In this document: positions 28,604 through 49,070 of the stretch, piece after piece
How the letters are laid out: each line of letters opens with the position of its first letter
How positions within the stretch are numbered: position 1 is the stretch's first letter
Origin: a virus
UHGV virus genome: UHGV-0039337
Direction: 5' to 3' (one strand)
DNA length: 64,000 bases
Program-made: the position numbers and the translations under genes
Notes under the pieces: model-generated
Told to the model about the DNA's origin: nothing
Databases searched by the model: none
Seen by the model: the letters and a program-made list of their open reading frames with translations, nothing else

Positions 28604-28957
28604 TTATTCCAACTCCTTTAATAATTCAATATTTGCGTATAATATAATTGGCGAAAAAGGCTTATTGCTTACAGCCATTATTTTTACTTCTTGACCATTA
28701 TATTTATTTATAATAATTGAGTTTTTATCTGTGCTAATTACAGTTCCAGAGAGTATTTTGTGTATACTTAACTCTAACGATGATACTAAATACGTAGTAT
28801 ATTTACTGTTTATAGTATTGATTTTCTTTTTTAATAAACTTTCTTTATTTCCTATAACATCTATTGAATCTAACGTATTAAATAGACTGTTAATTGATAT
28901 AGGTATGTTATTTTCGCAATAATCTTTTATAAGATTCATAAAATCATCATATGTCAT
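28604..28957 (-). CDS. member of six-copy paralogous family (conserved N-terminus ..L...C....PI.INSLFNT)
   Basis: N-terminal MTYDDFMNLIKDYCENNIPISINSLFNTL aligns with 30592, 31170, 46199, 47319 and 48633. Confidence 0.55.
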   Translation of the reverse strand: MTYDDFMNLIKDYCENNIPISINSLFNTLDSIDVIGNKESLLKKKINTINSKYTTYLVSSLELSIHKILSGTVISTDKNSIIINKYNGQEVKIMAVSNKPFSPIILYANIELLKELE

Positions 28958-28973
28958 ATATTAACTCTCCTTT

Positions 28974-29213
28974 CTAAATTAAGTGATACAATAGTACTAA
29001 TGCTATTAATAATATTATCAGTACTATTGTTACTGATATATACTCGACTGTATATTCATCATCAATGAAATGTCTTAATATTTCCATTAATCCATAACAA
29101 ATAACTAATCCTAATATCACGCCTATGAAAATCCCTACTATAGAAAGTAATACTTCTATAAACATGTAAAACATTCCTCCTTTAAAAATATTATAAAGTA
29201 TGCTTACTGGCAT
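28974..29213 (-). CDS. small membrane protein (79 aa)
   Basis: Hydrophobic. Confidence 0.45.
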   Translation of the reverse strand: MPVSILYNIFKGGMFYMFIEVLLSIVGIFIGVILGLVICYGLMEILRHFIDDEYTVEYISVTIVLIILLIALVLLYHLI

Positions 29214-29784
29214 AATAGTGTTATCTTTTTTTATAACTTATATATAATATACATGAATAAATAAATAAGATTAGAAGTTAAGTAGTGGTTAGGTAAGTAC
29301 ACATTGCGTGTGTGTGGTCACTATAAAATATAACCAAGGGTCATGACCTTCAAATCCATGTAATTTAAATCTTAATTTCAAACTAGAGAAGCCGATACTC
29401 TAGTATAAATAAGATACGATAGGTGAACTGTAGCCAATGCTAAAAAATACAGTGGAAGTAATAATATATATGCCATAGCTACAGACATATATTACTTACC
29501 TCAACTGGGAGAGCTTGAGCAAGCTTAACCCTGATACGTTGTATCAAAAAACAAAAAATGCAAGGATGGATTGCCTGGTAGTTTGTTAACTACGCCTAGT
29601 GAAAAGTATTATGTTTGAATGTGTGGGCAGGATGCACATGAGTAATACTAGTAGCCACAATTGATGGAACCTATACTGGATTCAAATTGTTTCTCTATAT
29701 TTAATAGGGATATTATAGGCCTGTTTTAAGGCCTAACTATGTCTAAAACATAGCACTTTTACCCTACCTGGGCTTTAACTTTGT

Positions 29785-30177
29785 TTAATTCGTATAGCTT
29801 ACAACAACTGCTAATAGTGGCTTTGTTGGATAATATGGTGTAAAGTCATCAGGAAGCTCTTCTTCTAGCTTACTGTTAAACTCTGTTAGAAATGTTTCTC
29901 CTCCAAGTATTTTACTTAATCCTCGGATTAATACGTATTTCTCATCATAGAAGCAGAAGTATAGATAATAACTGTAGTATACTGAATCTTTTCTCAATAG
30001 AACTAACTTAAAGCATGGATAACTCATAAATCTTAACTCTGATATAGTATTTTTAACTTCTATATCATGAGCCGATAAAATATTAAGCAATTTATCTAGC
30101 TCTATCAATATTTCCTTATTATATATAGTTGATAGTATATTATTTAGTTCTTTATTTATTTCGTTATTCTTTTTCAT
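29785..30177 (-). CDS. hypothetical protein, tandem paralog of 30206-30589
   Basis: Shares the YPCFKLVLLRKDSVYYSYYLYFCFYDEKYVLIRGL...TEFN..LEE..PDDFTPY block. Confidence 0.55.
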   Translation of the reverse strand: MKKNNEINKELNNILSTIYNKEILIELDKLLNILSAHDIEVKNTISELRFMSYPCFKLVLLRKDSVYYSYYLYFCFYDEKYVLIRGLSKILGGETFLTEFNSKLEEELPDDFTPYYPTKPLLAVVVSYTN

Positions 30178-30205
30178 ATTTCCTCCTTATATTATTCTAG
30201 ACTTA

Positions 30206-30589
30206 TTAATGATAATCTCTTGGACAGTATGGTGTAAAATCATTAGGAGGATCTTCTTCTAATCTATTATTAAATTCTGTTAAAAATACTTCTCCTCCAC
30301 TTATTCCTTCTAGTCCTTGGATTAATATACATTTTTCATTATAAAAGCAGAAGTATAAAAAATAGCTATAGTATACTGAATTTTTTCTTGATAAAATTAA
30401 TCTAAAACATGGATACTTTACACATTGATGATACTTTGTAATTTTTGCTTCTAATATGTCTTCTTCAATAGTTACATTGTGACTCGATAAAATCTTTACT
30501 AGCTCATTTAGTTCTATTAATATTTTTTTATGATATATGGTTAATAATATATTATCTAATTCTTTATTCATTTCAATACTCTTTTTCAT
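30206..30589 (-). CDS. hypothetical protein, tandem paralog of 29785-30177
   Basis: See paralog. Confidence 0.55.
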   Translation of the reverse strand: MKKSIEMNKELDNILLTIYHKKILIELNELVKILSSHNVTIEEDILEAKITKYHQCVKYPCFRLILSRKNSVYYSYFLYFCFYNEKCILIQGLEGISGGEVFLTEFNNRLEEDPPNDFTPYCPRDYH

Positions 30590-30591
30590 TT

Positions 30592-31182
30592 TTACTCCTC
30601 GTATTGTTCTAATAGTTTATCGTTCTTTTTTATTGCGTTTTCGTAATGTTCTTTAAAGTCATGTAACTGTGTTTTTAGTAAACTGTTAGGATGTATGAAT
30701 TTATTATTATCATCATTAAATAGATTCATTTCAGCCACAAGTGAATTGTTATAAGTAAAAGTAAGTATGATTATATCGTCGTTAATATTTATATTGTATG
30801 GATCCATATAACATAGCTCATATTCATTGTATGAACTTACTTTTAAGTATTCTTCTTTTGAATATTGCATTTCTAATTTAAACCAATCATTGTAGGTATT
30901 GTCGTATACATCGAAAGTTATACAGTTATAATTAAAAAATGTTGGACTTATAGATGCATCATAAGTGGTTGTATAAAGACAAGATCCAAAAAATAAACTG
31001 TAGTATTCAGTTTCTATTTTTGCATACATATCATTTAAAGAGTCACGATCTCTATAATTTCTTATTCTTAAATTATGATCATAATAGATTGTATTTATTA
31101 GAGATTTTAGATTAATAGGAATGCTATATTTACACATTTCATATAATGTTTTAACTATTTCATGCATTATTAAACCCTCCAA
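30592..31182 (-). CDS. paralogous family member (PINLKSLINTI N-terminus)
   Basis: MHEIVKTLYEMCKYSIPINLKSLINTIYY. Confidence 0.55.
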   Translation of the reverse strand: MEGLIMHEIVKTLYEMCKYSIPINLKSLINTIYYDHNLRIRNYRDRDSLNDMYAKIETEYYSLFFGSCLYTTTYDASISPTFFNYNCITFDVYDNTYNDWFKLEMQYSKEEYLKVSSYNEYELCYMDPYNININDDIIILTFTYNNSLVAEMNLFNDDNNKFIHPNSLLKTQLHDFKEHYENAIKKNDKLLEQYEE

Positions 31183-31670
31183 GCAGAACTTTCAATATCT
31201 GTAAGTTTCTTTCTTTTAATGTATTTCCATTTTTCATCACCTGGATATTGTGATATATCTATATTAGCTATATCGCCATAATCATGTACTTTATTCGTCT
31301 TAGTGATGCATAGTATATAAACTTCATCATTAATATTTACAGTACAATTATTCTTTACAGTATAGTCTATATCATCAAGAATATTTATACATACTAAGTC
31401 AGTACGCGTAAAGAATAAATAATATTTTATATTTTCCCAACGTTCTTTTATTGTTATTATTGAAGTATTATTAGCATATATTTCTGTATCTGATTGCTCA
31501 TCTATATAAAGATCTAGACTGCATGGCTCTTTATATTCTCTAGTATTTTTTGATGCTAATACATATTCTTTATCTTCATTTATAGTATTTAATAAACTCT
31601 TTAAATTAACGGGAGTATTATTATTACATAAATTGATTAGCTGTATTATTAAATCTTCTTTATAACTCAT
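31170..31670 (-). CDS. paralogous family member (PVNLKSLLNTI N-terminus)
   Basis: LIIQLINLCNNNTPVNLKSLLNTINE. Confidence 0.55.
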   Translation of the reverse strand: MSYKEDLIIQLINLCNNNTPVNLKSLLNTINEDKEYVLASKNTREYKEPCSLDLYIDEQSDTEIYANNTSIITIKERWENIKYYLFFTRTDLVCINILDDIDYTVKNNCTVNINDEVYILCITKTNKVHDYGDIANIDISQYPGDEKWKYIKRKKLTDIESSAWRV

Positions 31671-32202
31671 AGCTTATACTTCTTTCTGTTTCATTAATAG
31701 AGTTAATAGCTTGAATTATAGCATTAGCGATTGTTTCAGCCATTTCAATTATGAAATCTAATTGTACATTACTTAGAGATTCTATCGTTTCCATATAATC
31801 ATTTTTTCCTATACTTACTATTCCTTTTATTGAATAGTCACCTATACTTTCTAATTTTTTATTGACTCCAGATCCTGGTCTAATAGGTCCACTATTTATT
31901 CTGATGGTTCCTACTTCAAATAAACAACTTGTAGCGGCATCTATTGCTAATATAGTAGAATCTTTATGCTTTCTTTTTATTTCAGGTATTTTTTCAGATA
32001 TATTTAAACCATGTATAGGATTTTTAATAGTTCCATATATTGTATTATTAAGATTACTCTTTTCTAATATTGAACCAACATTAGGGCCTAAACTATCTCC
32101 TATATATTTATCAGTTCCTATACATACTATTACTGTATTCTCGTCTAAGATGCTTTTAAGTTTATCAATCATTTTTGTATTCATACTATTTTCTCCTTTC
32201 AA
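31660..32202 (-). CDS. YyaC-like sporulation protein (DUF1256, hydrogenase-maturation-protease-like fold)
   Basis: VIVCIGTDKYIGDSLGPNVGS...AIDAATS...GPIRPGSGVNKKL...GIVSIG parallels B. subtilis YyaC (ICIGTDRSTGDSLGPLVG...). Confidence 0.65.
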   Translation of the reverse strand: MKGENSMNTKMIDKLKSILDENTVIVCIGTDKYIGDSLGPNVGSILEKSNLNNTIYGTIKNPIHGLNISEKIPEIKRKHKDSTILAIDAATSCLFEVGTIRINSGPIRPGSGVNKKLESIGDYSIKGIVSIGKNDYMETIESLSNVQLDFIIEMAETIANAIIQAINSINETERSISYEL

Positions 32203-32537
32203 AATAAAGATAGTTGTATTCGTTTACATACACATATAAAACCTAAATCGGTTGGTATAAATAAATATAAATATATTATTCTTGCTGATTTACGTACTTT
32301 TAATAATAAGTTCATATCTTCGTTTATTCTTTTGTCGTTTTTATATTTCTTTCCGAATGTTTTTATTACATAATTCTTATTTACTTTATAGACTTCTTTA
32401 ACTTTATCTAATTTGATTATGTCATTCATTGTTTCTGCGTTGATGCATATTTCACTTTTATAACATGCATTTAACATTTTGATAACTTCTGTATTTTGCA
32501 TATATCTCCTCCAAAACAATAGCGCCGTGTTTATCAT
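32199..32537 (-). CDS. hypothetical protein (112 aa)
   Basis: ORF. Confidence 0.45.
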   Translation of the reverse strand: MINTALLFWRRYMQNTEVIKMLNACYKSEICINAETMNDIIKLDKVKEVYKVNKNYVIKTFGKKYKNDKRINEDMNLLLKVRKSARIIYLYLFIPTDLGFICVCKRIQLSLF

Positions 32538-32545
32538 GGCGCTAT

Positions 32546-33022
32546 TTAATCTATATTATTATTGTATTTTATTATTCCATCCTTTGGTATATAGTAAATA
32601 TATTTATCATCTTCAAAACAGAAAAACATATATCTTATTATTTTGTTTTTATATCTATATATATGTCTTTCAACTTTTGGTTTATCTTTTATATTATTAG
32701 ATACAAATATATTTTTAGTTAATTGTATTGACATATTTTTTCTGTCTTTTGTATTATATTTATAATATAAATGATCACCTTCAAAATTTTCTTTTATATA
32801 TTTTTCATTTTTATATGGAACTAATTTTTCTGATTCAATTAGTGCTGTTTCTGTGCTACATACTGTACAAGTTATTAAACTTATAACAACAGTTAAAAGT
32901 ATTGTAGAAAATACAGATAAAACAAGTTGTAATATAAAAATTTCTATTTCTGAAAATGATGATCTTAGCCATTTAAAATATATAATGTTAAATAATACAA
33001 ACAGTATACATGTTATTATCAT
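32546..33022 (-). CDS. membrane protein (158 aa)
   Basis: Two N-terminal TM helices. Confidence 0.45.
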   Translation of the reverse strand: MIITCILFVLFNIIYFKWLRSSFSEIEIFILQLVLSVFSTILLTVVISLITCTVCSTETALIESEKLVPYKNEKYIKENFEGDHLYYKYNTKDRKNMSIQLTKNIFVSNNIKDKPKVERHIYRYKNKIIRYMFFCFEDDKYIYYIPKDGIIKYNNNID

Positions 33023-33040
33023 ATATTTATTTCTCTCCTA

Positions 33041-33238
33041 TTATTTTAATAAATAAGTTTCTATTTCTACTATCATAAATGGTTTACTCTCATGTCTATA
33101 TACAAGAGGTTCTTCTCTGATAGTATATCCTAATTCATGTACTTTTTTATATGCATCTTCTACATTACTATACATAACTTTACTTACGTCTGGGCCTATA
33201 GCGTAATCATAATAAATCAATCCATAGATTCTTTTCAT
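33041..33238 (-). CDS. hypothetical protein (65 aa)
   Basis: ORF. Confidence 0.4.
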   Translation of the reverse strand: MKRIYGLIYYDYAIGPDVSKVMYSNVEDAYKKVHELGYTIREEPLVYRHESKPFMIVEIETYLLK

Positions 33239-33257
33239 AAAATCAACCTTTCTTTGT

Positions 33258-33494
33258 TTATAATGTTTCTAATATATTGCTTTCTTTTACATTATATACG
33301 TCATATTTCCCTTCAAGTAAATACCAGTTTTCTATTTTTCCGCATACTAATAAAGGTGTACTATTTGTTATAGTACCTTCTACTTCTTTCCATACAGATT
33401 TAATGTGCTTAATGCTAGGATCGTATACTCTTACTTCAGCATTAGATTTTACTCTTTCTCCTATTTTATATTTAAACATTTTTTGATATAACAT
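33258..33494 (-). CDS. hypothetical protein (78 aa)
   Basis: ORF. Confidence 0.4.
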   Translation of the reverse strand: MLYQKMFKYKIGERVKSNAEVRVYDPSIKHIKSVWKEVEGTITNSTPLLVCGKIENWYLLEGKYDVYNVKESNILETL

Positions 33495-33619
33495 AATATC
33501 AACTCCTTTATTTATTTTTTCTTATCCATTCATCGTTTTCAACTGTTTTAACAGTTAACCATAACATTATACATATTACAATAATTCCTATTAACATTTT
33601 AAACATATTAATCACTCCT

Positions 33620-33862
33620 TTATTTAATTACGCATGATAATATATAGCTTATTGTTATTAATATAGTTATAAAAATAATTTTATTAAATATTTGTATAGT
33701 AAACGAATGTTTGTGCTTAAAGTTTCTGATTTTATTTTTTTTCTTATATTTCTTTATTTTACTTAAGTTATTGTAGTATCTTTTATGACATATCTCAGCT
33801 TGTTTATTTATTTTTAAATATAGAATTTTATTATCACATTTCATAAAATTACTCCTTCGCAT
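33620..33862 (-). CDS. hypothetical basic/membrane protein (80 aa)
   Basis: ORF. Confidence 0.4.
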   Translation of the reverse strand: MRRSNFMKCDNKILYLKINKQAEICHKRYYNNLSKIKKYKKKNKIRNFKHKHSFTIQIFNKIIFITILITISYILSCVIK

Positions 33863-34218
33863 GGATAAAATAATTTTTCATACAATTCTTTTAACTTTTG
33901 TGTTCCAATATTTAAGTTGTCATCTTTTTCTAATGCGTATAGTTTGTAATTAATTATTAATTGTTCTATTATTTCATTTAATACTTTATTTGTATCTACG
34001 ACTGCATATTGCACATTCAATTTATTATTTTCCATTACAAACATAGTATCTTCGTAATTTCCTATTTCAATTTCAATACTAAATTCTTTATTTACTTGCA
34101 ATTCTAAATTTTTATCTACATTTTTATTTGATATAACATCTCCTTTATTAAAAGTAATCAGCATTCTTATCCCTTCTTTCTTTATTACGTACGACAGCCT
34201 GTATACATTGAAACACAA
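33841..34218 (-). CDS. hypothetical protein (125 aa)
   Basis: ORF. Confidence 0.45.
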   Translation of the reverse strand: MCFNVYRLSYVIKKEGIRMLITFNKGDVISNKNVDKNLELQVNKEFSIEIEIGNYEDTMFVMENNKLNVQYAVVDTNKVLNEIIEQLIINYKLYALEKDDNLNIGTQKLKELYEKLFYPCEGVIL

Positions 34219-34254
34219 CGATACAGGCTTATCTTTAGTACGTTTTATATAATG

Positions 34255-34482
34255 TTATTTTTCTAGTCTTGTTATATAGTCAAATAATGCTTCGATAAGA
34301 ACATCACTTATTCTTATACGTCTTTGTTTTCCTTTAATGGTAATGCGTATACTATTTCCGTTGTTATTAGTAAGTATTTTGTGTTTATAACCTGAATAGA
34401 CATTTCCATCAATGTTGATATAATATTCTGTACCAGGATATTTAAAATATTCCATATTACCTATAAGTATTTTTCTATCCAT
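34255..34482 (-). CDS. hypothetical protein (75 aa)
   Basis: ORF. Confidence 0.4.
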   Translation of the reverse strand: MDRKILIGNMEYFKYPGTEYYINIDGNVYSGYKHKILTNNNGNSIRITIKGKQRRIRISDVLIEALFDYITRLEK

Positions 34483-35077
34483 ATACTATTACACCCCTGA
34501 TGTAATAGTAGCACTGTTTAATAGATTTTTGTAGATTATTTATTATTTTCTAAATAATTCTGCTACAGATGCAGCAAATAGAAAAATAGCAACAACAAGT
34601 AAAACAGTTATTAATATAGTTCCTAAAACTTGTGCTAGTATCATTCATCTATCATCTTCTTTTTTATTAATTTTTCTAAGTCGTCAACTATTTGTGAATA
34701 AGCTATCCATTTTCCGTATTCCGTTTCAGTTTGAAGTTCTCTAAATCTTTTTTTTGTTTCATGCAAGTTCTCTCTATATATATCTAGTAGTCTTTTTAAA
34801 TCTTCCTTCATACTTTCTCCATTCCTATTTATATTTCTTCTTCAAATTCATTGCCACAATCATTACATTCAATATGAAAAACTGTCACTTCGTATTGTTC
34901 GCCTGTGTAATAATTAGTTACTAATGTTTTTTCTTTATTTACTATGATTAAGTTAGTGCTCCTACATTTTTCACATTCCATATTTACCTTTCACAAAATT
35001 AGTTATTGTATATATATTTTTATGCTTACAAAACAATCTTTTCATTAATCTTATTCGATCTTCCTATAATAAAAGAA

Positions 35078-35278
35078 TTATTTTATTGCATATTCTCCTA
35101 GTTTATTGCCACACATAGGGCAATAATTTATTTTTATCCCATATATGCTTTCTTTTTGTCCACCAACTCTATTTTCTTCTAAATAGTTACAACTATTAAT
35201 TTTTATTGCATAATCACTATTATTTTTATACATTAATGGTTCTTTATCTATATATCTACCTTCGCAATATTTACACAT
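35078..35278 (-). CDS. zinc-ribbon protein (66 aa)
   Basis: CKYC...CPMCG. Confidence 0.4.
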   Translation of the reverse strand: MCKYCEGRYIDKEPLMYKNNSDYAIKINSCNYLEENRVGGQKESIYGIKINYCPMCGNKLGEYAIK

Positions 35279-35310
35279 ATTTCCTCCAATAAAAGAATTA
35301 TTTTATTTAA

Positions 35311-35529
35311 TTAAAGACTATCTATATAATCAAAACATTCTCTAGTTATATTTTCATACTCTACAAGTTCTTCTTTTTGTTCTTTTGTTAAAAGTTCTTT
35401 TTCTGCTATAAATTCATATTTCATTTTTTCAATCTCTTTTAATTTGCTTACAACAGATGTTAATTCATGAGTTGTACCTATTATAAGTTTTTTATATTCT
35501 CTAAATTTATTTTCTTTCATACATTCCAA
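35311..35529 (-). CDS. hypothetical protein (72 aa)
   Basis: ORF. Confidence 0.4.
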   Translation of the reverse strand: MECMKENKFREYKKLIIGTTHELTSVVSKLKEIEKMKYEFIAEKELLTKEQKEELVEYENITRECFDYIDSL

Positions 35530-35663
35530 CCTTTCTAAATAAAAATTATATTTTAACTTTTAAATTATGTCTTTTTTCAAAAACATAATATGGCTCATAC
35601 TTAAGCTGATATGTTGTTATTTTGGGTATACAACTTTAAGTGTGGAAAATAAAAGAGAGTGAA

Positions 35664-36971
35664 TTAAAATTTATCACTCTCTAATAACTCCATAAGTTGT
35701 GGAATATCTACTCCAAACCCTTCTTCTATTATCGTTTTAGTTTTGGTTATATAACCATCCCAAGTAAACTTACTTATAGGTGCTTGATATTCAACTCTTT
35801 TATACTTAGGTTTCTTAGTAGCAGATGTGCCAAATAAGACTTTTGCTCTAAGAACTTCGAATGAATAACCTCTACCTGATTTCTCTATATTCTTAATTAG
35901 ATTATTAACACTTTCAGTATAAGCATTTGTAATGGTACATTCAAAGTAATTAAATATCTCATGCTTCCAGTTATCAACTGTTTTAGCAACTTCTTGATAG
36001 TATTTCATATCTTCTGGTATGCTTGCTTTCCATTCAAGATAAGCATTATAAGCATCGTTCTTATTCTCATACTTATATATCTGCCTAAACTGTTCTTTAA
36101 GTTCATATGCCAACTTTAACTGTGGAAACTCTGCAAATATTATTTCAAGTTTCCATATATCTCTAGCCTCTAAGTCCTCGTGATTCCTTAGAAGTAAGAA
36201 TCTTTCCTTTAATAACTTAGACCTTCGCTTAGCATCTAGAGTTGCTCTAAAAGCCTTTCTCTCGTTTTCTAGTGCCTTTGTAATAAGTTGTATTACATGG
36301 AATTTATCAACTATTACCATAGCATTTGGTAACACCTCATATACTGCCTCTTTGTAGTATCTCCACATATCTATTGTGACTACTTCTATATCATACTTGT
36401 TAGGCAATTTGTTTAAGAATGCTTTTACATCTGACTTCTTTCTGCTAGGCTGGATGTCTAATACCTTTCTACCAATTATATCTGTATAAACAGCTCTCAT
36501 GCTCTTATTTAGATGTGCTTCATCTATACCTAGTATAATTGGAGTAGTGTAGTCTAAATCCTTTTCTGTCTCTTTTACATAGCTCTCAAAGATACGTTTT
36601 ACTGTAGTAGGTGAAATACTATATTCTTCTGCTATATTAGCAAATGGCTTTTTAAGAGATTCTCTTTCTATCTGTTCTCTTAAACGTATAGTGATTTTAT
36701 CTCTATCATCTATGCTTTCATAATGCTGACTAAATGTACTTTTACAGTATTTGCATTTATATCTGTTAGTGTGTATTTCAATACCTACACGCTTTCCAAA
36801 ACTGTTTAAATCTCTTACAAACCTTTTAGACTTGCCATGCTTATAGTATTCCACTCCACCGCACTCAGGACATGCTAGAGGCTCTTTAACTGGTTTAACT
36901 ATTACTGTCATATCGTGTTCATCTTGTATTGTGTCTATAACTTCAAACTCTGGTAAATTTAGTATGTTCAT
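35664..36971 (-). CDS. ISL3 family transposase
   Basis: N-terminal zinc ribbon CPECGG...CKYCKS, HTH, and DDE region ILGIDEAHL...VTIDMWRYY; about 435 aa, typical of ISL3. Confidence 0.8.
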   Translation of the reverse strand: MNILNLPEFEVIDTIQDEHDMTVIVKPVKEPLACPECGGVEYYKHGKSKRFVRDLNSFGKRVGIEIHTNRYKCKYCKSTFSQHYESIDDRDKITIRLREQIERESLKKPFANIAEEYSISPTTVKRIFESYVKETEKDLDYTTPIILGIDEAHLNKSMRAVYTDIIGRKVLDIQPSRKKSDVKAFLNKLPNKYDIEVVTIDMWRYYKEAVYEVLPNAMVIVDKFHVIQLITKALENERKAFRATLDAKRRSKLLKERFLLLRNHEDLEARDIWKLEIIFAEFPQLKLAYELKEQFRQIYKYENKNDAYNAYLEWKASIPEDMKYYQEVAKTVDNWKHEIFNYFECTITNAYTESVNNLIKNIEKSGRGYSFEVLRAKVLFGTSATKKPKYKRVEYQAPISKFTWDGYITKTKTIIEEGFGVDIPQLMELLESDKF

Positions 36972-36972
36972 A

Positions 36973-37335
36973 TTACTCTCTTTCTAATAATTCTGGATTT
37001 TCATATATATTACCTATAACTTCCATAAATTCTGAAACATTATATATCGGTAATAAGTAATCTCCCTCTACATCGATAAAAAACATACCTTTAGAATATA
37101 TTATTTGACCCATATGTTCTTTAGTTTTAACTATATCCCCTTCATAAATTTCTTTTTCGTGTTTATCTTTTACTCCTGTCCATTGCATTAATCTACAAAC
37201 ATATGGATAAGGTGCACTCCAACGTCTACATTCTTCATCTTCCATTCTTACTTCATAATCTTCTAAGTTTATTGAAGTAACTTTTGCTATTTCTTCTTTT
37301 TCTCTATCCCACGCTCTAAATTTAATTTCTCTCAT
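36973..37335 (-). CDS. YopX family phage protein
   Basis: MREIKFRAWD...WTGVKDKHEKEIYEGDIV...IGNIYENPELLE, the hallmark YopX blocks. GGGAGG RBS. Stop lies 1 nt before the transposase ATG. Confidence 0.75.
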   Translation of the reverse strand: MREIKFRAWDREKEEIAKVTSINLEDYEVRMEDEECRRWSAPYPYVCRLMQWTGVKDKHEKEIYEGDIVKTKEHMGQIIYSKGMFFIDVEGDYLLPIYNVSEFMEVIGNIYENPELLERE

Positions 37336-37606: not shown

Positions 37607-38137
37607 TTATTTCTCTCCTTTATTATTATCATTATAGGCAAATACATCATTAAATCTATCTAAATCTAATAAATTATTTTTTACCAAGATATTCAAAGTT
37701 GAAATTATCTTACAAGTATCATCATTGCAATTTAGATATAAATTTTCTATCATACATTTATCACAAGTATTATAGTCAAATGAATGTATAACTTTATCAA
37801 AAAAATTTGCAAGTGCTTTTCGTGAATGTTCGCTTTCTCGTGCACAACAATACTCTTCAACTAATTGCTCTTTAGTTTTTCCACAATCAGCTAATAAATA
37901 ATTTAATAAATCATCCGTACTATATTCTACCAACTCAAGCATATCAAAAGAACAAGTAAATGGATAATATTTAGAATCAAATATTTTACAAGTTCTATAT
38001 TTTTCATCTACATCTATAACAGTAAATATCATACCTGCAAATTGTGTCATATTATCTAAATAAACAATTCCATCATAGCTTTCACCTACAACTAAATCAC
38101 TTCTTAATCTAACTTTATCTCCATTTTTTATTTTCAT
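37607..38137 (-). CDS. hypothetical protein, N-terminal SH3-like KxGDxVxxRxDLxVG domain plus Cys-rich C-terminal region
   Basis: MKIKNGDKVRLRSDLVVGESYDG shared with 39102, 40374 and 11205. Confidence 0.5.
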   Translation of the reverse strand: MKIKNGDKVRLRSDLVVGESYDGIVYLDNMTQFAGMIFTVIDVDEKYRTCKIFDSKYYPFTCSFDMLELVEYSTDDLLNYLLADCGKTKEQLVEEYCCARESEHSRKALANFFDKVIHSFDYNTCDKCMIENLYLNCNDDTCKIISTLNILVKNNLLDLDRFNDVFAYNDNNKGEK

Positions 38138-39101: not shown

Positions 39102-39923
39102 TTATTGATTCTTGTATTCTCTTTCAACTAACCATAGTAGACAATAATTTATTAGGTCTAATATAGTATCCTCGATTTTTTCATCTTTTAATAATTGTTG
39201 TGTTGCATTCGGATCATATAGTGCTAATAATCTGTTATATTTATCTGTTATGTGTATTAGAAATGACATGTCACCAAACTTTTCATAAGTATTTGCAACG
39301 CTATTACCATAATCCTCAGTTTCAGCTTTATAGGTTTCCTCTAAATCGTTTAGTAAATATCTATATATAGCTAATCTAATTTTTTTAGCTTGCTCTAAAT
39401 CCTTTTTTGTTGTAGACTGCTCTAAATCCTTTTTCGCTTCAACAAGTTCTAACATATCTTTATTCCATGAATAATGATTATTTTCATTTGTTAAATAAAA
39501 ATCACCGTCATCGTCTATCTTTTCTATAGTATCAATTGCTCCTCTGAATCTTAGCATAGTGTCTAAAACATTGCAGTTACCATATTTTTCTCCTACCTGT
39601 AAGTCGTTTCTTATTTTAACCGTATCTCCCACTTTATAATTCATATTATTTTTCTCTTTTATTTTCTCTACGCAATTAGATTGTTCTAAGTCATTTTTTG
39701 CTTTAACAAGTTCTACCATGTCCTTGTTCCACACATAAGGTGTATTGTCATCTAAACATAAATCACCATCAGGGTCTATATATTCTATAATATGTGTTGT
39801 TCCTCTGTATTCCAACATACCCTCTGTAACACGACACGTTCCATATTTTTTCCCTACTTGTAAATCATTTCTTACTTTAACAACATCTCCTATTTTATAT
39901 TTCATATTTATCTCTCCTAACAA
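39102..39923 (-). CDS. hypothetical protein with two tandem about 75-aa SH3-like repeats (KxGDxVKxRNDLQVG.KYG...W.KDM.ELV)
   Basis: Internal duplication: MKYKIGDVVKVRNDLQVGKKYG.. and MNYKVGDTVKIRNDLQVGEKYG... Confidence 0.5.
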   Translation of the reverse strand: MLGEINMKYKIGDVVKVRNDLQVGKKYGTCRVTEGMLEYRGTTHIIEYIDPDGDLCLDDNTPYVWNKDMVELVKAKNDLEQSNCVEKIKEKNNMNYKVGDTVKIRNDLQVGEKYGNCNVLDTMLRFRGAIDTIEKIDDDGDFYLTNENNHYSWNKDMLELVEAKKDLEQSTTKKDLEQAKKIRLAIYRYLLNDLEETYKAETEDYGNSVANTYEKFGDMSFLIHITDKYNRLLALYDPNATQQLLKDEKIEDTILDLINYCLLWLVEREYKNQ

Positions 39924-40373: not shown

Positions 40374-40802
40374 CTATTTTTCATTCCATTTCTTAATTTC
40401 TTTTTCCAATTCAATTTCATTCATCATAGCTTGTATAAATTGTCTCCAAGTTAAGTTAAATTTTTTTAAATCCTTATCAACACCATTCATTATTTTAGTA
40501 TATTCTTCTCTTGAATCACATAATATAAGTTTTTTATGCCATTTATTGACTAATTCACAAATGATCATACAATTATATTCTAATTCACAAGCATCTATAC
40601 TTAATCTTTTTTCAATTATGTTAAATACAGTATTTTTATCCTTAATTAACAAACGAGCGGGGATTAATAATTTTTCCCCACAATCTAATTCCACAAATGC
40701 CGATGAAGTTGTCTTATTTATACTTAATATAGTCCCTCTTTTACCACTAATTGTAGTAGAATTTCCCCCTATAATAACTTTATCTCCAACTTTAAAATCC
40801 AC
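40374..40802 (-). CDS. hypothetical protein with N-terminal KVGDKVIIGG SH3-like motif (142 aa)
   Basis: ORF. Confidence 0.45.
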   Translation of the reverse strand: MDFKVGDKVIIGGNSTTISGKRGTILSINKTTSSAFVELDCGEKLLIPARLLIKDKNTVFNIIEKRLSIDACELEYNCMIICELVNKWHKKLILCDSREEYTKIMNGVDKDLKKFNLTWRQFIQAMMNEIELEKEIKKWNEK

Positions 40803-41208: not shown

Positions 41209-41442
41209 CTATTGACTAATATTTTTTACTTCCAATAATTCAAAACGTTTAATAACGGGATTGAATTTTAATTTTAGTGATACATTATTTTCAAATATAA
41301 CAGTAATTATATTCTCACCAACTTGTTTAATCTCTTTTATATCAGTAGTTAGATTATAATTAATTGCAAAGAATGTGCTTATGATATTTAAATTGATATT
41401 CTTATCTTTTATATTTTTTAATATATCTGAAATTTCACCCAT
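41209..41442 (-). CDS. hypothetical protein (77 aa)
   Basis: ORF. Confidence 0.4.
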   Translation of the reverse strand: MGEISDILKNIKDKNINLNIISTFFAINYNLTTDIKEIKQVGENIITVIFENNVSLKLKFNPVIKRFELLEVKNISQ

Positions 41443-41487
41443 TACATTGCCTCCTTATTTTATTTTGAACATACCTATATCTCATAT

Positions 41488-42042: not shown

Positions 42043-42229
42043 AATATCAATCTCCTTTTATTAATTAAAATAAATTTCTATTTATACAATCTATTGCTTC
42101 TATAGCAATATTATTTATTTCTATTTGATCCTTAGCTAATATTGTATTAATCAAATTTATAACTTCTTCATTTTCTTCTAACTCAATGATTGGTCTTTTA
42201 AGATTATAACAAATATGAGAGGATATATT

Positions 42230-42460
42230 TCAAAAGTATTTAATTACCCATAGTAATAGACATGTAGCTAAATAAACAAGTAATGACTGTATATATAAGT
42301 ATATTATGATTGATAGAATTATTGTAATTACATTTGGATCTTTAGTTAGTAACTTTTGTGTTTCATTTGCTATAGGATTATACTCTAGTATCAAGAACAC
42401 TATCATGTATATCTTTAGCAATATCTTCTTCTCATGATAAATAGTCACAAAATCTTTCAT
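42230..42460 (-). CDS. small membrane protein (76 aa)
   Basis: Hydrophobic. Confidence 0.4.
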   Translation of the reverse strand: MKDFVTIYHEKKILLKIYMIVFLILEYNPIANETQKLLTKDPNVITIILSIIIYLYIQSLLVYLATCLLLWVIKYF

Positions 42461-42472
42461 ATTTATATCTCC

Positions 42473-42706
42473 TTAATTTTTTACTTTTCGGTCAGTTACA
42501 TACTCGATTAATTCTACTTCATTACCATCTAAAAAGTGATCGCCATTTATAGTCAATAGTTCTTCTGCAGTATTTAAATCAATTAATTGATCGTATATGT
42601 CAGGAAGTTTATCTGAATCATGAGCTGTGAAATAGACCACCTTGTCTCTATTACGACTAGTAGGTTTTAATTTTACTCTAAATTCACGAATTATCATCAT
42701 TATCAA
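42473..42706 (-). CDS. hypothetical protein (77 aa)
   Basis: ORF. Confidence 0.4.
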   Translation of the reverse strand: MIMMIIREFRVKLKPTSRNRDKVVYFTAHDSDKLPDIYDQLIDLNTAEELLTINGDHFLDGNEVELIEYVTDRKVKN

Positions 42707-42802
42707 TTCACTCCTTATAAATATTAAATTCTATATGATTTTCTTAAATATCTTATAAGATCATTCCTTTAAAATAGGGCTATAAAAAATAGCCCTTTAT
42801 TA

Positions 42803-43564
42803 TCAATCATCTTCTTCAACTTCATATTCAAGCATTGCTTTATATAGTTTTTCAGGTATTATATCTCTATATTGATTAGCAACTTCTTTAATATATTTTT
42901 CTTTGAAATTTTTATAAACTTGAAATGCTTCTTCTGGTGTGTTATAGTATCCTAAAAAATTTTGCTTTTTGTCAGTATTACAATAAGCTTTATATTTTTT
43001 ACTTGATTTATTATAAGATACTCCAACTGGAAAATTACCTCTATCATTATTGCGTTTTGTAAATAATTTATTTATATTTTGAGGTACAAATATACAAGTA
43101 TCAGGACTGTATATTTTATTTCCTTTTATTAATATATCTTTGTCAAGATTCATTATTTGTTCTTCTATCTCATAATAATTATCTTCAAACCATTCAGCGA
43201 AATTTTGAAAATTATGCCATGGTTCATATACTTCACATTGTTCGTATGTTGGATGCTTTTGTATATATTTAGGATCATAACATCTACACAACATTCTATT
43301 CCATATGTCATAATGTTTTGTGTGTTTTCCATTTATTGATACATTGTATCTTCCTTCACCTATATAACCGGTGTTAAAAATTGTTTTTTCATAAGGACAT
43401 TTTACTCTACCGTTTATGAAATTAATATATTGCACATGTTCTTTTGTCCAGTCATATTCAGGGAAATATACATCAATATCATTATATTTTCTGTAATCGA
43501 TTATAATAATTTCATTACCAAAATTATTATGATTTATTGCGCCTATAATATTTTCTTTATCCAT
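42803..43564 (-). CDS. AP2-domain-containing homing-endonuclease-like protein (HNH/NUMOD-type phage endonuclease family)
   Basis: C-terminal AP2-like DNA-binding block GVSYNKSSKKYKAYCNTDKKQNFLGYYNTPEEAFQVYKNFKEKY. Confidence 0.5.
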   Translation of the reverse strand: MDKENIIGAINHNNFGNEIIIIDYRKYNDIDVYFPEYDWTKEHVQYINFINGRVKCPYEKTIFNTGYIGEGRYNVSINGKHTKHYDIWNRMLCRCYDPKYIQKHPTYEQCEVYEPWHNFQNFAEWFEDNYYEIEEQIMNLDKDILIKGNKIYSPDTCIFVPQNINKLFTKRNNDRGNFPVGVSYNKSSKKYKAYCNTDKKQNFLGYYNTPEEAFQVYKNFKEKYIKEVANQYRDIIPEKLYKAMLEYEVEEDD

Positions 43565-44675
43565 TTGCTTTATCCTTTTCTTTTTTTCTATATTCTTTTA
43601 TTAAATTTTTTGTATAATTAAATAGACTATTTGGATCTTTTCTTTGATATTCTACACGTGTCCATTCCATAGGTGTTCTTGAATAATAGTCTCCATATCC
43701 TCCTGGTGCAACATGACCATTGTAAACTCCCATGCCTATTTCTGTACCATAATATAAACATATGTCACTATCATCAAAAGAAAATAACATTTCTAATGCT
43801 TTTTTAACTCTATAAATATCATGATTAAGTGATACTGCTATTCTTGTTTGATCATGATTATCCAAGAATACAACATCGTATTTAGGATCGTTTTTGACTG
43901 TTAATGGTTCACCTGTATTTAGTGCATGTTTTATCCAACCTGATTCTTCAAAATTAAATGCTTTTCCTATTGTTCTAGCATATTTATTAGATTCTTCATA
44001 AGTATCCCAACATTCAGCAACTAAATAAGCATCAGGTTTTATTTTATGAACCATATGACTAAACCAGCCCCAAAATTCTATTGGATCACAACCATAACTT
44101 ATATATGGAACTGCGTCTAATCTAAATCCATCTACATTATGTTCTATCCAAAATCTTACGATATTTGTTATCATATTTCTTACTTTTTGACTACTACCAT
44201 TTAAAGCTGGCATACTAGCATCCCATGGAGCATAATAGAATTTACTATTTTCATAACAATATCTCCATTTGTTATCTATTTGAGTGTCGCTCCAAAAATA
44301 ACAATCATTTTCTCCTTTGATGCTCTCTCTGAATAACTTATTATGATAATCAGTATGACATAATACTAAATCAAGAAATATTTCTATATTTTTATTATGT
44401 GCTTTAAATATAAATTTGTCAAAATCTTCCATTGTACCATACTGTTTTTTTACTTGATAATAATTGCTAACATTATATCCATGTTCACTTGGAGAATCAA
44501 AAATAGGAGTTAGCCACAAACTGCTAACTCCTAATTCTTCTATATAATTTAACTTATCTGCTAAGTCTTTAAAGTCTGTACAAAATGCTGGTGTATAAAT
44601 TTCGTATATTATTCTTCGTTTATTATTCAAAGTATCACATCTCCTTTTAATTTTAAATCTTTTGATCAAACTCAA
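43557..44675 (-). CDS. GH13 alpha-amylase family glycoside hydrolase
   Basis: All four GH13 regions: DLVLCH, GFRLDAVPY, AECWD, FLDNHDQTR. N-terminal YEIYTPAF...LGVSSLWLTPIF. Confidence 0.85.
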   Translation of the reverse strand: MSLIKRFKIKRRCDTLNNKRRIIYEIYTPAFCTDFKDLADKLNYIEELGVSSLWLTPIFDSPSEHGYNVSNYYQVKKQYGTMEDFDKFIFKAHNKNIEIFLDLVLCHTDYHNKLFRESIKGENDCYFWSDTQIDNKWRYCYENSKFYYAPWDASMPALNGSSQKVRNMITNIVRFWIEHNVDGFRLDAVPYISYGCDPIEFWGWFSHMVHKIKPDAYLVAECWDTYEESNKYARTIGKAFNFEESGWIKHALNTGEPLTVKNDPKYDVVFLDNHDQTRIAVSLNHDIYRVKKALEMLFSFDDSDICLYYGTEIGMGVYNGHVAPGGYGDYYSRTPMEWTRVEYQRKDPNSLFNYTKNLIKEYRKKEKDKANG

Positions 44676-44907
44676 AACTGTATGAAGATTTTTTACTCTT
44701 TTTAGTTATTTTTTTAGTAGTACTTTCATTTGCTTTATATTCTTCAATGCTTTCATTTACTCCGTTTACAAATGCATTACATGTTGTTTTTCCAGCATCT
44801 TTTGTTATTCCTAAGAATAGTTTTCCAATTTCTATTGTTATGTTACTTAAAGGTAGTATTACATCTTTACAATAACTTTTACATAATTCTTTTTGTAGCT
44901 TGCTCAT
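44653..44907 (-). CDS. hypothetical protein (84 aa)
   Basis: ORF. Confidence 0.4.
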   Translation of the reverse strand: MSKLQKELCKSYCKDVILPLSNITIEIGKLFLGITKDAGKTTCNAFVNGVNESIEEYKANESTTKKITKKSKKSSYSFEFDQKI

Positions 44908-44911
44908 GCAA

Positions 44912-45175
44912 TTATCTCCAATACATTTTTTTAATAGATTTAATTTTTATTTTAGTATCTGGGGCTAATTCGCCCCAATCTATTGCTGGTCTATCTAATT
45001 CTATATCTAATGTTATATATTTTCCCATTGGTGATTCTGTATATGTTATTTTATTGTTTTCTTCATTAAATCCTGCACAGTCCCAATCTTTAGCATAAAA
45101 TATATTGTCTATATCTTCTTCAGATACAAATGTATCTTTGATAGATTCTAATTTATTTAATAATTCTTCGTACAT
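44912..45175 (-). CDS. hypothetical protein (87 aa)
   Basis: ORF. Confidence 0.4.
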   Translation of the reverse strand: MYEELLNKLESIKDTFVSEEDIDNIFYAKDWDCAGFNEENNKITYTESPMGKYITLDIELDRPAIDWGELAPDTKIKIKSIKKMYWR

Positions 45176-45204
45176 AAAAACATCCTCCTTATATTATTTA
45201 AATA

Positions 45205-45603
45205 TTAATTTAGCGTATTAAATGCTATAAGTTCTATTCGTGATGTATAATTATAGTTTTGCTTTCTTATGTCTATTAGATTAACACCCATGTCAAGGCA
45301 ATAATTGTATCTGTTAAAGAATTGTATCTTGTATGGATGATTGCAATCTACTTTTTCGAAGTCGCCTATTTCATCAACTTTACTGTATTCAGTTTTACTA
45401 TGCATATTAGGAATACGAATGCCATACATTTTATTACAATATTCTTTAGCTTCTTTGTAATCGTTAAATAATTTTATTTCATAATCTTCTTGTGGTATCA
45501 TATATCCTGATATATAATTATTAGAACTTAAACTAATCCAATTAGGACGTCCTTCCTCTTCTCTATTTATTCTTTCTATCTCTTCATATTTAACAGTTTT
45601 CAT
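45205..45603 (-). CDS. hypothetical protein (132 aa)
   Basis: ORF. Confidence 0.45.
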   Translation of the reverse strand: MKTVKYEEIERINREEEGRPNWISLSSNNYISGYMIPQEDYEIKLFNDYKEAKEYCNKMYGIRIPNMHSKTEYSKVDEIGDFEKVDCNHPYKIQFFNRYNYCLDMGVNLIDIRKQNYNYTSRIELIAFNTLN

Positions 45604-45635
45604 AAAAAAATACTCTCCTTTTTTTTAATCATGGT

Positions 45636-45794
45636 CTATTTCCATGTTTTTGTTTCTGTATCATATAATAAGCTCATAGGCGCATCATTAATCTCTATTA
45701 AAGCCATAGCTATTTCATTGTATAAATTAAAACTTAGTATTGTAGCTTTCTTTTCTTCACATTGTTCTAGTAAGGTTTTTAGTTCTTCTGACAT
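45636..45794 (-). CDS. small hypothetical protein (start at internal ATG 45794 with GGAGG RBS; the track ORF extends to 45905)
   Basis: MSEELKTLLEQ... preceded by GAGGAGG. Confidence 0.4.
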   Translation of the reverse strand: MSEELKTLLEQCEEKKATILSFNLYNEIAMALIEINDAPMSLLYDTETKTWK

Positions 45795-45901
45795 GTTATT
45801 CCTCCTCTTCTTCACTATCATCATCATTGAAAACACATATATAGCAATCTGATTCTTCACATTCTTCGGTTCTAAATAGACAAGAATAAAAATCCATAAT
45901 A

Positions 45902-46129
45902 TCATCTCCTATTTTTAATATTAAGAACATTTCTTTTTTGTTCTTCAGATAATGATTCATAACATGGTTGTTTATATCCTAATTCTTCTTCTAGACCATT
46001 AATAATATCGTATGCGTCAAATATTATATCTTTTAATATTAACATATTTTTATCTTCTGAGGTTATTATTTTACTAGCTTCTTCATTTGATAATCCATAA
46101 TGTATTAAACAGTCTTTTAACCAATCCAT
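45902..46129 (-). CDS. hypothetical protein (75 aa)
   Basis: ORF. Confidence 0.4.
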   Translation of the reverse strand: MDWLKDCLIHYGLSNEEASKIITSEDKNMLILKDIIFDAYDIINGLEEELGYKQPCYESLSEEQKRNVLNIKNRR

Positions 46130-46198
46130 AATATACCTCCTTAATTTTTATAGCTTTGCAAGAGTTATACATTACAATTATGCAAAGCTATAATTTTC

Positions 46199-46633
46199 TT
46201 AATAAGAAAGATTCTTGAAATTGTTTTCTATTCTTTTCGCTAAGCTTTGTAAATCAGTTTCTTCTTTTTTATTTTTATTTTGTCGCAAGTCTTTATTGTA
46301 ACAAATAATCCAGCTATTTTCTCCATCATAATATTCAACTTCTGTTAATAACACATTATCTTCATATGCCATTTCTTGGTTATATTCAGTTGTATGTGTA
46401 TTAGCTAAACTAACAAATATTATAGCATTATATATTAAGTGTACTTCAATTGTAATTTCAGGATATATATATTCATTATCTATTCCATTAGTATAAAATG
46501 AACGATAGAAAAGTGTCTCTGGATAACCATCATAAAATGAATAATGAATAGTGTTAAATAAACTTTTAATGTTTATTTCTGTAGTATGATGACATAATTC
46601 TTTAAATAGTTCTAATGTATCATATATATTCAT
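46199..46633 (-). CDS. paralogous family member (EINIKSLFNTI N-terminus)
   Basis: LELFKELCHHTTEINIKSLFNTIHY. Confidence 0.55.
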   Translation of the reverse strand: MNIYDTLELFKELCHHTTEINIKSLFNTIHYSFYDGYPETLFYRSFYTNGIDNEYIYPEITIEVHLIYNAIIFVSLANTHTTEYNQEMAYEDNVLLTEVEYYDGENSWIICYNKDLRQNKNKKEETDLQSLAKRIENNFKNLSY

Positions 46634-46687
46634 ATTGTCACCTCAAATAAAATGAGGGCTAAAATTAATTGGCCCTCTTTGTAATAT

Positions 46688-46945
46688 TTATTGCTCAAAT
46701 AGGTCTATTGAGTAATTAGTCTTTTCAAGTTCTTCGAGTGCCGATAAATTAGCTTTTTCAAATATTTCTATTTCGGTACTTCCATGACTTCCACATTCTA
46801 ATGTAACATTAGTATAAAAACCATTATTATCAAGATTAAAATAAAATGTATTATTATCTCTTATAAGATAATAGCAATTACTACCTTGTTTGTATCCTTT
46901 ATTTATTAATAAATATTCTAATCCCATAGTAATGTTGTCCTCCAA
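46688..46945 (-). CDS. hypothetical protein (85 aa)
   Basis: ORF. Confidence 0.4.
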   Translation of the reverse strand: MEDNITMGLEYLLINKGYKQGSNCYYLIRDNNTFYFNLDNNGFYTNVTLECGSHGSTEIEIFEKANLSALEELEKTNYSIDLFEQ

Positions 46946-46966
46946 ATAATTTTACTATTAAAGCGT

Positions 46967-47227
46967 CTACTTATTTTTGTAATCTTGTATTATTTTGAAT
47001 CTTTTATGTTTATCTATTATTTCGTTTTTGTACCAAAAATCTATTATTGCTTCTTCATTATCAATCATAAATGCATAGTCGCATATATCGTAACTACAAT
47101 ATATCTTTTTATATGCTTTACCATTTGGTATATCTTTTGCCTTTCTTACTTTCTTATTGGCACATTTTTTATTGTATTTGTCATTTTTTTCTTTTGCTAC
47201 TAAATTCTTTTTATAACTTCTACTCAT
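46967..47227 (-). CDS. hypothetical basic protein (86 aa)
   Basis: ORF. Confidence 0.4.
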   Translation of the reverse strand: MSRSYKKNLVAKEKNDKYNKKCANKKVRKAKDIPNGKAYKKIYCSYDICDYAFMIDNEEAIIDFWYKNEIIDKHKRFKIIQDYKNK

Positions 47228-47318
47228 AATTTGAGCCTCCTTGTAATAATATTTAATTACAAGGCACTTTTGTAATAATATGTTAACATTATATTTCCTC
47301 CTTACAATTTAAAAATAT

Positions 47319-47723
47319 TTATTCTCTCATAATTTTACGAATAGTTTTTGTATTATTCTTTTCAAATACACTACTAGAATAGTATTTATTAATAAATATT
47401 GCACTTCTTAAACCCTTAGATGTTTTTAACGTTATTTTTGTTATTACAACATTTTCATCATTATGGTAATATTTATTATCAAAGTATTCGAAACAAACAT
47501 CTTTTATATATGGCACAAAATATACTGTATATTCTGTTTGTTCAAATTCAAATATAAGAAAGCCTCCTTTTGTACAAAAATTACTTTCTCCAACAAATGC
47601 TCCATAATCTGCTAACATTTCGCTTTCTTCTGTAATGTTGCTAAGACTATTTTTTAAACTACCAAGATTAATTGGTACGCATTCTTCTGCTAATTGCGTT
47701 AATTCCTCTATTAAATTTTCCAT
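47319..47723 (-). CDS. paralogous family member (PINLGSLKNSL N-terminus)
   Basis: LTQLAEECVPINLGSLKNSL. Confidence 0.55.
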   Translation of the reverse strand: MENLIEELTQLAEECVPINLGSLKNSLSNITEESEMLADYGAFVGESNFCTKGGFLIFEFEQTEYTVYFVPYIKDVCFEYFDNKYYHNDENVVITKITLKTSKGLRSAIFINKYYSSSVFEKNNTKTIRKIMRE

Positions 47724-47776
47724 AACATAACCTCTTTTCTATTAAGTTTTTAAATTTTATAGATTTATTATTGTTT

Positions 47777-48361
47777 TTATTTATTATAACATTCGTTGCA
47801 TATAATGTGTAAATTATCATCAGTGAAATAATATTTATCATTATCATATATAGGTTTATAACATCTGTAACATTCGCCTACTTGTTCGTGACAACCACAC
47901 CAATATTCTAAACCCATTCCATCACTTATATCTGTCATTTCACTTTTTAATTTAAGTTTGCCACATTTACTACATCTATCATATTTTTTTCTTTCTGTTT
48001 CTTCTTTTTCATATTTTTGTTTATTTTTTTCATATGAAGCTATTAACTTTTTGTTATTTGTATTATATAAACATTCTTCATTACAATATGCACCAGAATT
48101 AGTAACGATTACATCATCTGGTATTGGTGAATTGTAATAGAATAATTGTTTACCACAATATTCACAATAATAAGTTTTACTATAATACTTTTGTTTATTG
48201 TTACTACATCCAGTATTAAAACTAGAACATACTATTAATAGTGCTATAATTATACCTTTCATTTTTATCACCTCTTCTTTTGTTAATTTAATTGTATTAC
48301 CATGCTTTGGGTAATGATAAAATCTATTCAATTCTATTTTTTCTCCATCTGGTGTTATCAT
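47777..48361 (-). CDS. Cys-rich putative lipoprotein (194 aa)
   Basis: Signal peptide with lipobox-like LIVCSSFNTGCS; multiple CxxC pairs. Confidence 0.5.
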   Translation of the reverse strand: MITPDGEKIELNRFYHYPKHGNTIKLTKEEVIKMKGIIIALLIVCSSFNTGCSNNKQKYYSKTYYCEYCGKQLFYYNSPIPDDVIVTNSGAYCNEECLYNTNNKKLIASYEKNKQKYEKEETERKKYDRCSKCGKLKLKSEMTDISDGMGLEYWCGCHEQVGECYRCYKPIYDNDKYYFTDDNLHIICNECYNK

Positions 48362-48403
48362 ATAATAGAATGCTTCACAATCAAAATCCTCTCAAATGAT
48401 ATT

Positions 48404-48670
48404 TTATTCAGAGGTGATTTCAGTTATTGTATACCATTCGATCAACTCTCTTTTAATACCCATAAAACCAAACACTATTATGTCTTCTTTGTTTTCTATC
48501 CTTTGAGTTATAACTTCAGGCATGTCTATTACTTGGTTTCCTTCTATTTTAATATATTCTCCAGTTGTTAACTTTACCGTTAATATATATTCTTTAGTGT
48601 TTTTATATTCGTATTCTTCCATATTATTTCTCCTAATAATAAATTTTATTTTCTTTAACAATATCAACAT
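48404..48670 (-). CDS. hypothetical protein (88 aa)
   Basis: ORF. Confidence 0.4.
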   Translation of the reverse strand: MLILLKKIKFIIRRNNMEEYEYKNTKEYILTVKLTTGEYIKIEGNQVIDMPEVITQRIENKEDIIVFGFMGIKRELIEWYTITEITSE

Positions 48671-49070
48671 TTTCTATAATACTATAATCTTTTGTTTTTC
48701 TTTTATCAATTTTCCAATTGATATAATAAATATTATTATAATATATACAATCAAATAATCCACATGCTATTCTGATAATATATATATTATCGTTATCGTC
48801 TATTTTTAAATCTTTTTTATTGAATGCTACAAAATATAGTGTATATATTATATCTTCGTCATTTTCATCTCTAAAGTCTATCCATCCTCTAACACTTTTA
48901 TTTTTATCAAGTGTATAATTAGGATATTCTATTTCTTCATATTGTTTTGATTTTTTATCTAAATTTACACTATTAATCAGGCTGCCTAAATTAATAGGAG
49001 TCTGGTTAGCAGCTAATTCAATTAAGTATTCTAACATTTTAAATGTTGTTTCTTTATTTTTCATACACAA
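48633..49070 (-). CDS. paralogous family member (PINLGSLINSV N-terminus)
   Basis: LEYLIELAANQTPINLGSLINSV. Confidence 0.55.
   Translation of the reverse strand: MCMKNKETTFKMLEYLIELAANQTPINLGSLINSVNLDKKSKQYEEIEYPNYTLDKNKSVRGWIDFRDENDEDIIYTLYFVAFNKKDLKIDDNDNIYIIRIACGLFDCIYYNNIYYINWKIDKRKTKDYSIIENVDIVKENKIYY

Follow-up and report, generated by a model that had tools for sequence, protein, structure and literature searches.

Six genes in a 64,000-nucleotide (nt) stretch of the virus genome UHGV-0039337 (the whole stretch is hereafter referred to as the window) share an N-terminal element of about 28 amino acids (aa), the head, which is followed in each gene by a fast-diverging body. All six are open reading frames (ORFs) of the minus strand, here designated a to f, and are best explained as paralogues of an undescribed, clade-restricted family that has been expanded by duplication. 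The first-pass annotation of the window had singled out the shared block, the conserved heads with divergent tails in dispersed copies, and the lack of a recognizable family. These observations hold up: the similarity survives proper alignment, the copies are both dispersed and tandem, and searches of Pfam, PHROGs, NCBIfam, PADLOC and the PDB gave no match to the family. The six members, with the position of the element in each, are as follows.

28604-28957, minus strand: a, 117 aa; element at residues 3-30 (nt 28868-28951)
30592-31167, minus strand: b, 191 aa; element at residues 1-28 (nt 31084-31167)
31170-31670, minus strand: c, 166 aa; element at residues 4-31 (nt 31578-31661)
46199-46633, minus strand: d, 144 aa; element at residues 3-30 (nt 46544-46627)
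47319-47723, minus strand: e, 134 aa; element at residues 1-28 (nt 47640-47723)
48633-49064, minus strand: f, 143 aa; element at residues 7-34 (nt 48963-49046)

The coordinates originally given for a, c, d and e are retained, whereas the starts of b and f have been corrected. Gene b begins at the ATG at 31167 (MHEIV...) rather than at the TTG at 31182, because the ribosome-binding site TGGAGGG and the starts of all orthologues place it there. On the same two kinds of evidence, f begins at the ATG at 49064 (MKNK...) and not at the TTG at 49070; the relatives of f start later still, at MKMLEY. G+C-rich hairpins with T-runs that resemble terminators lie directly upstream of d (46634-46687) and of f (49065-49156), and each of these two genes may therefore begin a separate transcription unit or depend on read-through for its expression. 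A third such hairpin (46130-46198) lies directly upstream of the gene at 45902-46129. A scan for sigma-70 promoters and terminators found fewer sites than in shuffled controls.

The N-terminal block is common to all six proteins, and its consensus, derived from 23 diverse members, is hhxxLhELxxNxxP(I/V)xLxSLxN(S/T)h. In that alignment Asn25 is invariant and Leu23 nearly so, and in a 36-sequence alignment of the family the conservation of Ser22, Leu23 and Asn25 is 90% or higher. A hidden Markov model (HMM) of the 30 N-terminal residues, searched against the 478 six-frame ORFs of the window, retrieved exactly the six members. Leave-one-out HMMs regained the omitted member in every case (six of six) at E values of 1e-5 to 1e-8, against 0.07 for the best non-member, which rules out a chance motif. 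No seventh copy was found in the window, even with a broader HMM built from relatives. Ungapped identity between paralogues over the 28-aa element is 21-46%, and in alignment A6 the mean pairwise identity is 45% for the head and 21% for the body. The element occupies the extreme N terminus in nearly all members, and the sequences diverge immediately after its terminal N(S/T)h, where the alignments contain no conserved residue or cleavage motif.

The conservation of the 5′ ends does not stem from a DNA-level repeat, a promoter or gene conversion. The DNA upstream of the copies cannot be aligned and the synonymous sites differ between them; the constraint therefore acts on the protein and not on the DNA. 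A lipoprotein or secretion signal was likewise rejected: the sequences have neither a hydrophobic stretch nor a basic n-region, the grand average of hydropathy (GRAVY) lies between -0.02 and -0.77, and the cysteine of the 'ELC' motif is replaced by alanine or glycine in e, f and many relatives.

The C-terminal parts had been described as unrelated, which is correct for most pairs at the sequence level and incorrect for e and f, which are homologous over their full length, and for d, which joins them by profile. Comparison of orthologue alignments with hhalign matched e to f along about 110 columns, with a probability of 95.8%, whereas the match of every other pair is confined to the first 25 or so columns. 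In local alignments of the parts following the element, e-f was the sole significant pair (z 4.4); b-c and c-f were borderline (z about 2), and most pairs fell below z 2.3. Protein d groups with the e/f-type family by profile, and its C terminus fits that profile. By contrast, none of hhalign, a C-terminal-only HMM and BLAST clustering detected homology of the a, b or c C termini to the e/f type. The predicted folds of b and e are nevertheless alike, as described below.

When 1.84 billion representatives were searched exhaustively with HMMER, the d/e/f alignment recovered about 30 further clusters (at 50% identity) of 76-205 aa, with matches that span most of the profile. The C-terminal motifs Y..F, GGWI, YxhFFhP, NDxVxIVxI and NxxYC are common to this wider d/e/f family. 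A profile of the C-terminal parts of the wider set also picked up three members of a distant array, one of which lacks a clear head. A search for fusions with the head only had a small yield, 17 candidates, all of them short. In the six members and the relatives tested, nothing reached the curated threshold or E < 1e-3 in Pfam, NCBIfam or PADLOC, and no match to PHROGs or the PDB exceeded curated thresholds.

The family is confined to one group of phages. Contigs as long as about 271-273 kb, assembled from human gut samples (Hadza among them) and from wastewater, encode proteins identical to those of the window, which is therefore part of an uncultivated jumbo phage. Its G+C content is 24-36%, and nearly all genes examined (those at 27-64 kb and the larger ORFs elsewhere) are on the minus strand. 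Word-indexed searches over 5.8 billion clusters returned orthologues only, all from the same phage lineage of about 270 kb, and these are intact on many contigs. The a orthologues, on contigs of about 270 kb, are 77-95% identical; c is identical to a protein (P0003) found on nine contigs of up to 271 kb; and an exact copy of the d protein is encoded on 18 gut and wastewater contigs. No relative was found among 50,697 GenBank phage records for any window region tested (megablast of 28000-50000 and tblastn of b and e). Pattern searches of IMG/VR, 185,579 GTDB species genomes and JGI metagenomes gave matches, none of which was confirmed as a relative, and no homologues were found in bacterial genomes or known phages. 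The known occurrence of the family is thus limited to low-GC gut and wastewater contigs, the distant ones all having a G+C content of 25-31%.

In related phages the family is always multi-copy, and the number varies between relatives. A moderately diverged relative (L009-L013; 60-90% protein identity) has additional members, designated g, h and i in L009. One of these extras, a gene of 153 aa, lies between c and b; the other two, a gene of 114 aa and a copy that is short or truncated, lie in an insertion that is absent from the window. The distant contigs carry three copies in 4 kb (L022) and at least six in 6.7 kb (L024); L021 has about 14 genes with a head in 10 kb, and L028 about 19 in 14 kb. 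The last two contigs have near-orthologous members and, judged by these sequences, look like one sister lineage; when their shared genes are allowed for, they hold more than 25 copies, as compared with 6-9 per genome in the lineage of the window.

The ratios of non-synonymous to synonymous substitution rates (dN/dS), calculated against L009/L010, are 0.44 for a, 0.37 for b, 0.67 for c and 0.25 for d, within the range of neighbouring genes (0.10-0.71). These values indicate functional genes under purifying selection that are not outliers. Diverged copies, a variable copy number, restriction to one clade and purifying selection are all found together, as in a lineage-specific paralogous expansion.

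The family proteins are small (100-230 aa), without a signal peptide or membrane segment. Most have an isoelectric point (pI) of 4.3-5.9, a negative GRAVY and no hydrophobic segments. An AlphaFold2 model of e, based on a 20-sequence alignment, has a mean predicted local distance difference test (pLDDT) score of 73.6 and a predicted template modelling (pTM) score of 0.74, and consists of a helix (residues 3-13), a β-bridge (18-19) and a second helix (20-26), followed by seven to eight strands. The model of b, based on a separate 16-sequence alignment (pLDDT 65.8), begins with a helix (2-13), a β-bridge (18-19) and a helix (20-29), and contains a further helix (44-53), strands after it and a long C-terminal helix. 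The two proteins thus have the same predicted architecture, a helix/β-bridge/helix followed by antiparallel strands. The pTM score and the conserved hydrophobic periodicity of the head suggest that the head may be packed against the sheet. The structural-neighbour lists of the two models have 20 of their top 60 chains in common, including AcrID1, Ugi/Ugi-2, SIFV0014, the UvrB-interaction domain, LolA-like proteins and DarA, and this overlap suggests that both models share a general α/β architecture. A search of BFVD returned nothing.

These observations are compatible with the following mechanism. The members would be small, acidic, cytoplasmic proteins built as a single α/β unit, in which the N-terminal helix/β-bridge/helix of about 28 aa is joined to an antiparallel β-sheet. 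The head may evolve slowly because it serves as a folding nucleus or as a surface common to all paralogues, such as a docking site, while the sheet would carry specificity and diversify until no sequence likeness is left. Repeated tandem duplication and divergence would then have produced the 6-9 copies seen here and the more than 25 of the sister lineage, and each paralogue would use its variable body to recognize a target, or a variant of a target, of its own. Among small phage proteins, expansions with a variable number of copies are typically seen in genes that engage the host. Since the weak structural neighbours are, in addition, small protein inhibitors, we consider it about an even chance that the family is a panel of cytoplasmic accessory proteins of the binder or inhibitor type, serving host takeover or counter-defence. 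The way in which the copy number changes, and the small size and acidity of the proteins, would suit a role in anti-defence or as decoys.

Several points weigh against this interpretation. The confidence of the models is moderate (pLDDT 66-74), and the common fold for all members comes from two models only, because no sequence method links the a, b and c tails to the e/f type. Moreover, whole-gene dN/dS does not exceed that of the neighbours, and no signal of positive selection was found.

A different role for the head would be that of a portable address tag, comparable to the capsid targeting sequence (CTS) of T4; it would load varied small cargo into the prohead, or into another compartment or machine, for co-injection with the DNA. 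The CTS of T4 is about 10 aa long and ends at a prohead-protease cleavage site. The T-even internal proteins are diverse defence proteins that have the conserved CTS as their only common part (PMC3012670). T4 IPI, IPII and IPIII and their variable relatives are likewise multi-copy, variable and dissimilar small proteins with a conserved N-terminal element, and their role in counter-defence is known (PMC3012670). The N-terminal position of the element in nearly all members, its status as the sole part common to otherwise unalignable proteins, and the many copies that vary between relatives, as at the T-even internal-protein locus, are what such a tag would predict. However, at 28 aa the element is long, it is predicted to be structured, it is not followed by any conserved maturation cleavage pattern, and its carriers are acidic rather than basic. 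In addition, no carrier has a recognizable enzyme or other cargo domain, the true profile hits are all small (76-205 aa) and family-like over most of their length rather than tag-only fusions, and the genes are placed among small non-structural genes. An address tag of this kind is therefore improbable. We hold the broader proposal, in which the head acts as a transferable address or docking tag and would direct dozens of different small proteins to a single machine of the phage or the host (prohead, another compartment, protease or chaperone), to be similarly doubtful. If true, it would amount to a CTS-like delivery system in a Firmicute-type jumbo phage, with a tag that is longer, structured and unrelated to that of T4, and a targeting tag of this sort would offer a new means of getting proteins into phage particles.

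The head could also be a recognition element or propeptide for the product of an adjacent gene, with the members as substrates or regulators of a YyaC/DUF1256-type protease.

31660-32202, minus strand: DUF1256/YyaC-like 'spore protease', not a member of the family (Pfam PF06866, E 8.6e-46; phrog_8268)

This gene lies directly upstream of c and b, its end overlapping the start of c by 11 nt, and a DUF1256 gene is also found within the larger sister-lineage array (L021, 3973-4557). However, synteny in a single clade could account for the linkage, and d, e and f are 15 kb away from the gene. DUF1256 genes in Clostridioides difficile phage phiCD211, Bacillus phage G and other phages have no family member within 8 kb, which weakens the case for DUF1256 as an obligatory partner. 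Given that there is also no conserved cleavage motif, we regard the protease relationship as very unlikely. Less credible still are transcription regulators or other DNA-binding proteins in which the head opens a winged-helix-like domain (H1-β1-H2...): the predicted order of helix, short strand and helix resembles the start of such a domain, and the b model has the extra helix at 44-53 and then strands, but the proteins have a net negative charge (pI mostly 4.3-5.9), the e model has only two helices before the sheet and no third, and there is no helix-turn-helix match in Pfam or NCBIfam.

The array had initially been likened to polymorphic effector or immunity loci, with which it shares a constant N terminus, a variable C terminus and diverged copies in arrays. 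This comparison is not supported: the proteins are far too small and confined to phages, no toxin, trafficking or immunity domain, toxin-immunity pairing or bacterial homologue was found, and the neighbours of members are either other family members or unrelated small ORFs. Among the closest known systems, besides the T4 internal proteins, are the small acidic α/β phage inhibitors, such as the Ugi/SAUGI uracil-DNA-glycosylase inhibitors and the anti-CRISPR AcrID1. Bacillus phage G carries a zinc-ribbon family of about 35 copies, and expansions of this sort have been taken to reflect adaptation in biological conflicts or in regulation (PMC7824862). As in phage G, tens of paralogues of one small domain occur in one phage lineage; unlike the phage G family, the present one has no zinc ribbon and no known fold family, and its conservation is asymmetric, being limited to the head.

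The family itself is undescribed, whereas its kind, a lineage-specific expansion of a small jumbo-phage accessory protein, is already known. It constitutes a well-defined new domain family that is worth a database entry, rather than a demonstrated new mechanism. With more than 25 copies, it is comparable to the largest lineage-specific expansion noted in jumbo phages, that of phage G (about 35; PMC7824862). If the genes do form a diversified host-interaction panel, they would be the main arms-race locus of a widespread clade of uncultivated gut jumbo phages, and would make available one small scaffold in dozens of natural versions, among which new inhibitors of bacterial defence or housekeeping targets could be sought.

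The head-bearing genes are interleaved with three further paralogous families, and the region from 27 to 51 kb appears to be a gene-duplication hotspot. It also contains a noncoding element and, in its accessory part, genes for host-like metabolic and transport functions.

29214-29784, gene strand minus: noncoding element of 570 nt, ORF-free, between the genes at 28974-29213 and 29785-30177
29785-30177 and 30206-30589: paralogous tandem pair of about 130 aa, just downstream of b
37607-38137, 39102-39923 and 40374-40802: paralogous set of proteins in which an SH3-like module, 'KVGDxVKxRNDLxVGxxYG', recurs; PHROG hits of unknown function
43557-44675, minus strand: α-amylase-family protein (PF00128), in the accessory region
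49157-49519, 50113-50433 and 50529-50864: cysteine-rich trio of about 110 aa with a C..C.I.K...EYNI motif, flanking the TrpP-like gene
49568-50158, minus strand: TrpP-type tryptophan transporter (PF17099, E 5.8e-51)

The noncoding element is 96.8-97% identical to its counterpart in L009-L013, as compared with 79-87% for the flanking coding DNA. Folding of the minus strand gave a z score of -2.78, with none of 100 shuffled sequences as good, whereas that of the plus strand was -1.54. The element had no Rfam match at the gathering threshold or at E ≤ 1, and an exact 23-mer search did not find it in IMG/VR or JGI. This stretch is a candidate large structured noncoding RNA or cis-element, and perhaps a more unusual feature of the region than the protein family.

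An ISL3-family transposase gene (35664-36971, minus strand) lies next to a YopX-like gene (36973-37335, minus strand). Nearly identical contigs differ at this position, L003 having the YopX and ISL3 pair and L001, L002 and L005 having small ORFs, which looks like an insertion polymorphism within the phage population.

The window further encodes a sigma-factor-like protein, PhoH, an AAA ATPase and, identified by eye only, ClpP- and ClpX-like proteins. A 727-aa protein (60355-62538, minus strand) matches the Pfam RdRP family PF05183 (E 3e-6) around a DFDGD motif (...DFDGDD...) and is therefore assigned as a YonO-like single-subunit, two-barrel RNA polymerase; tblastn against GenBank phages gave no match to it at 1e-5. 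Among the minus-strand ORFs at 3381-4211, 4563-5357 and 5427-5843, two resemble parts of ClpX (the C-terminal ATPase and the N-terminal zinc-finger) and are split by a 264-aa ORF that resembles a homing endonuclease. The ClpP-like gene (5872-6489) adjoins this set, again as read by eye from the translations. A transfer RNA at 11983-12063 (minus strand) was recognized by Rfam (47.7 bits), whereas ARAGORN gave none there; it may be unusual or contain an intron. Finally, a run of about 14 ATA/AAT trinucleotide repeats at about 27453-27500 (minus strand) immediately precedes the start codon of the 27006-27452 gene.

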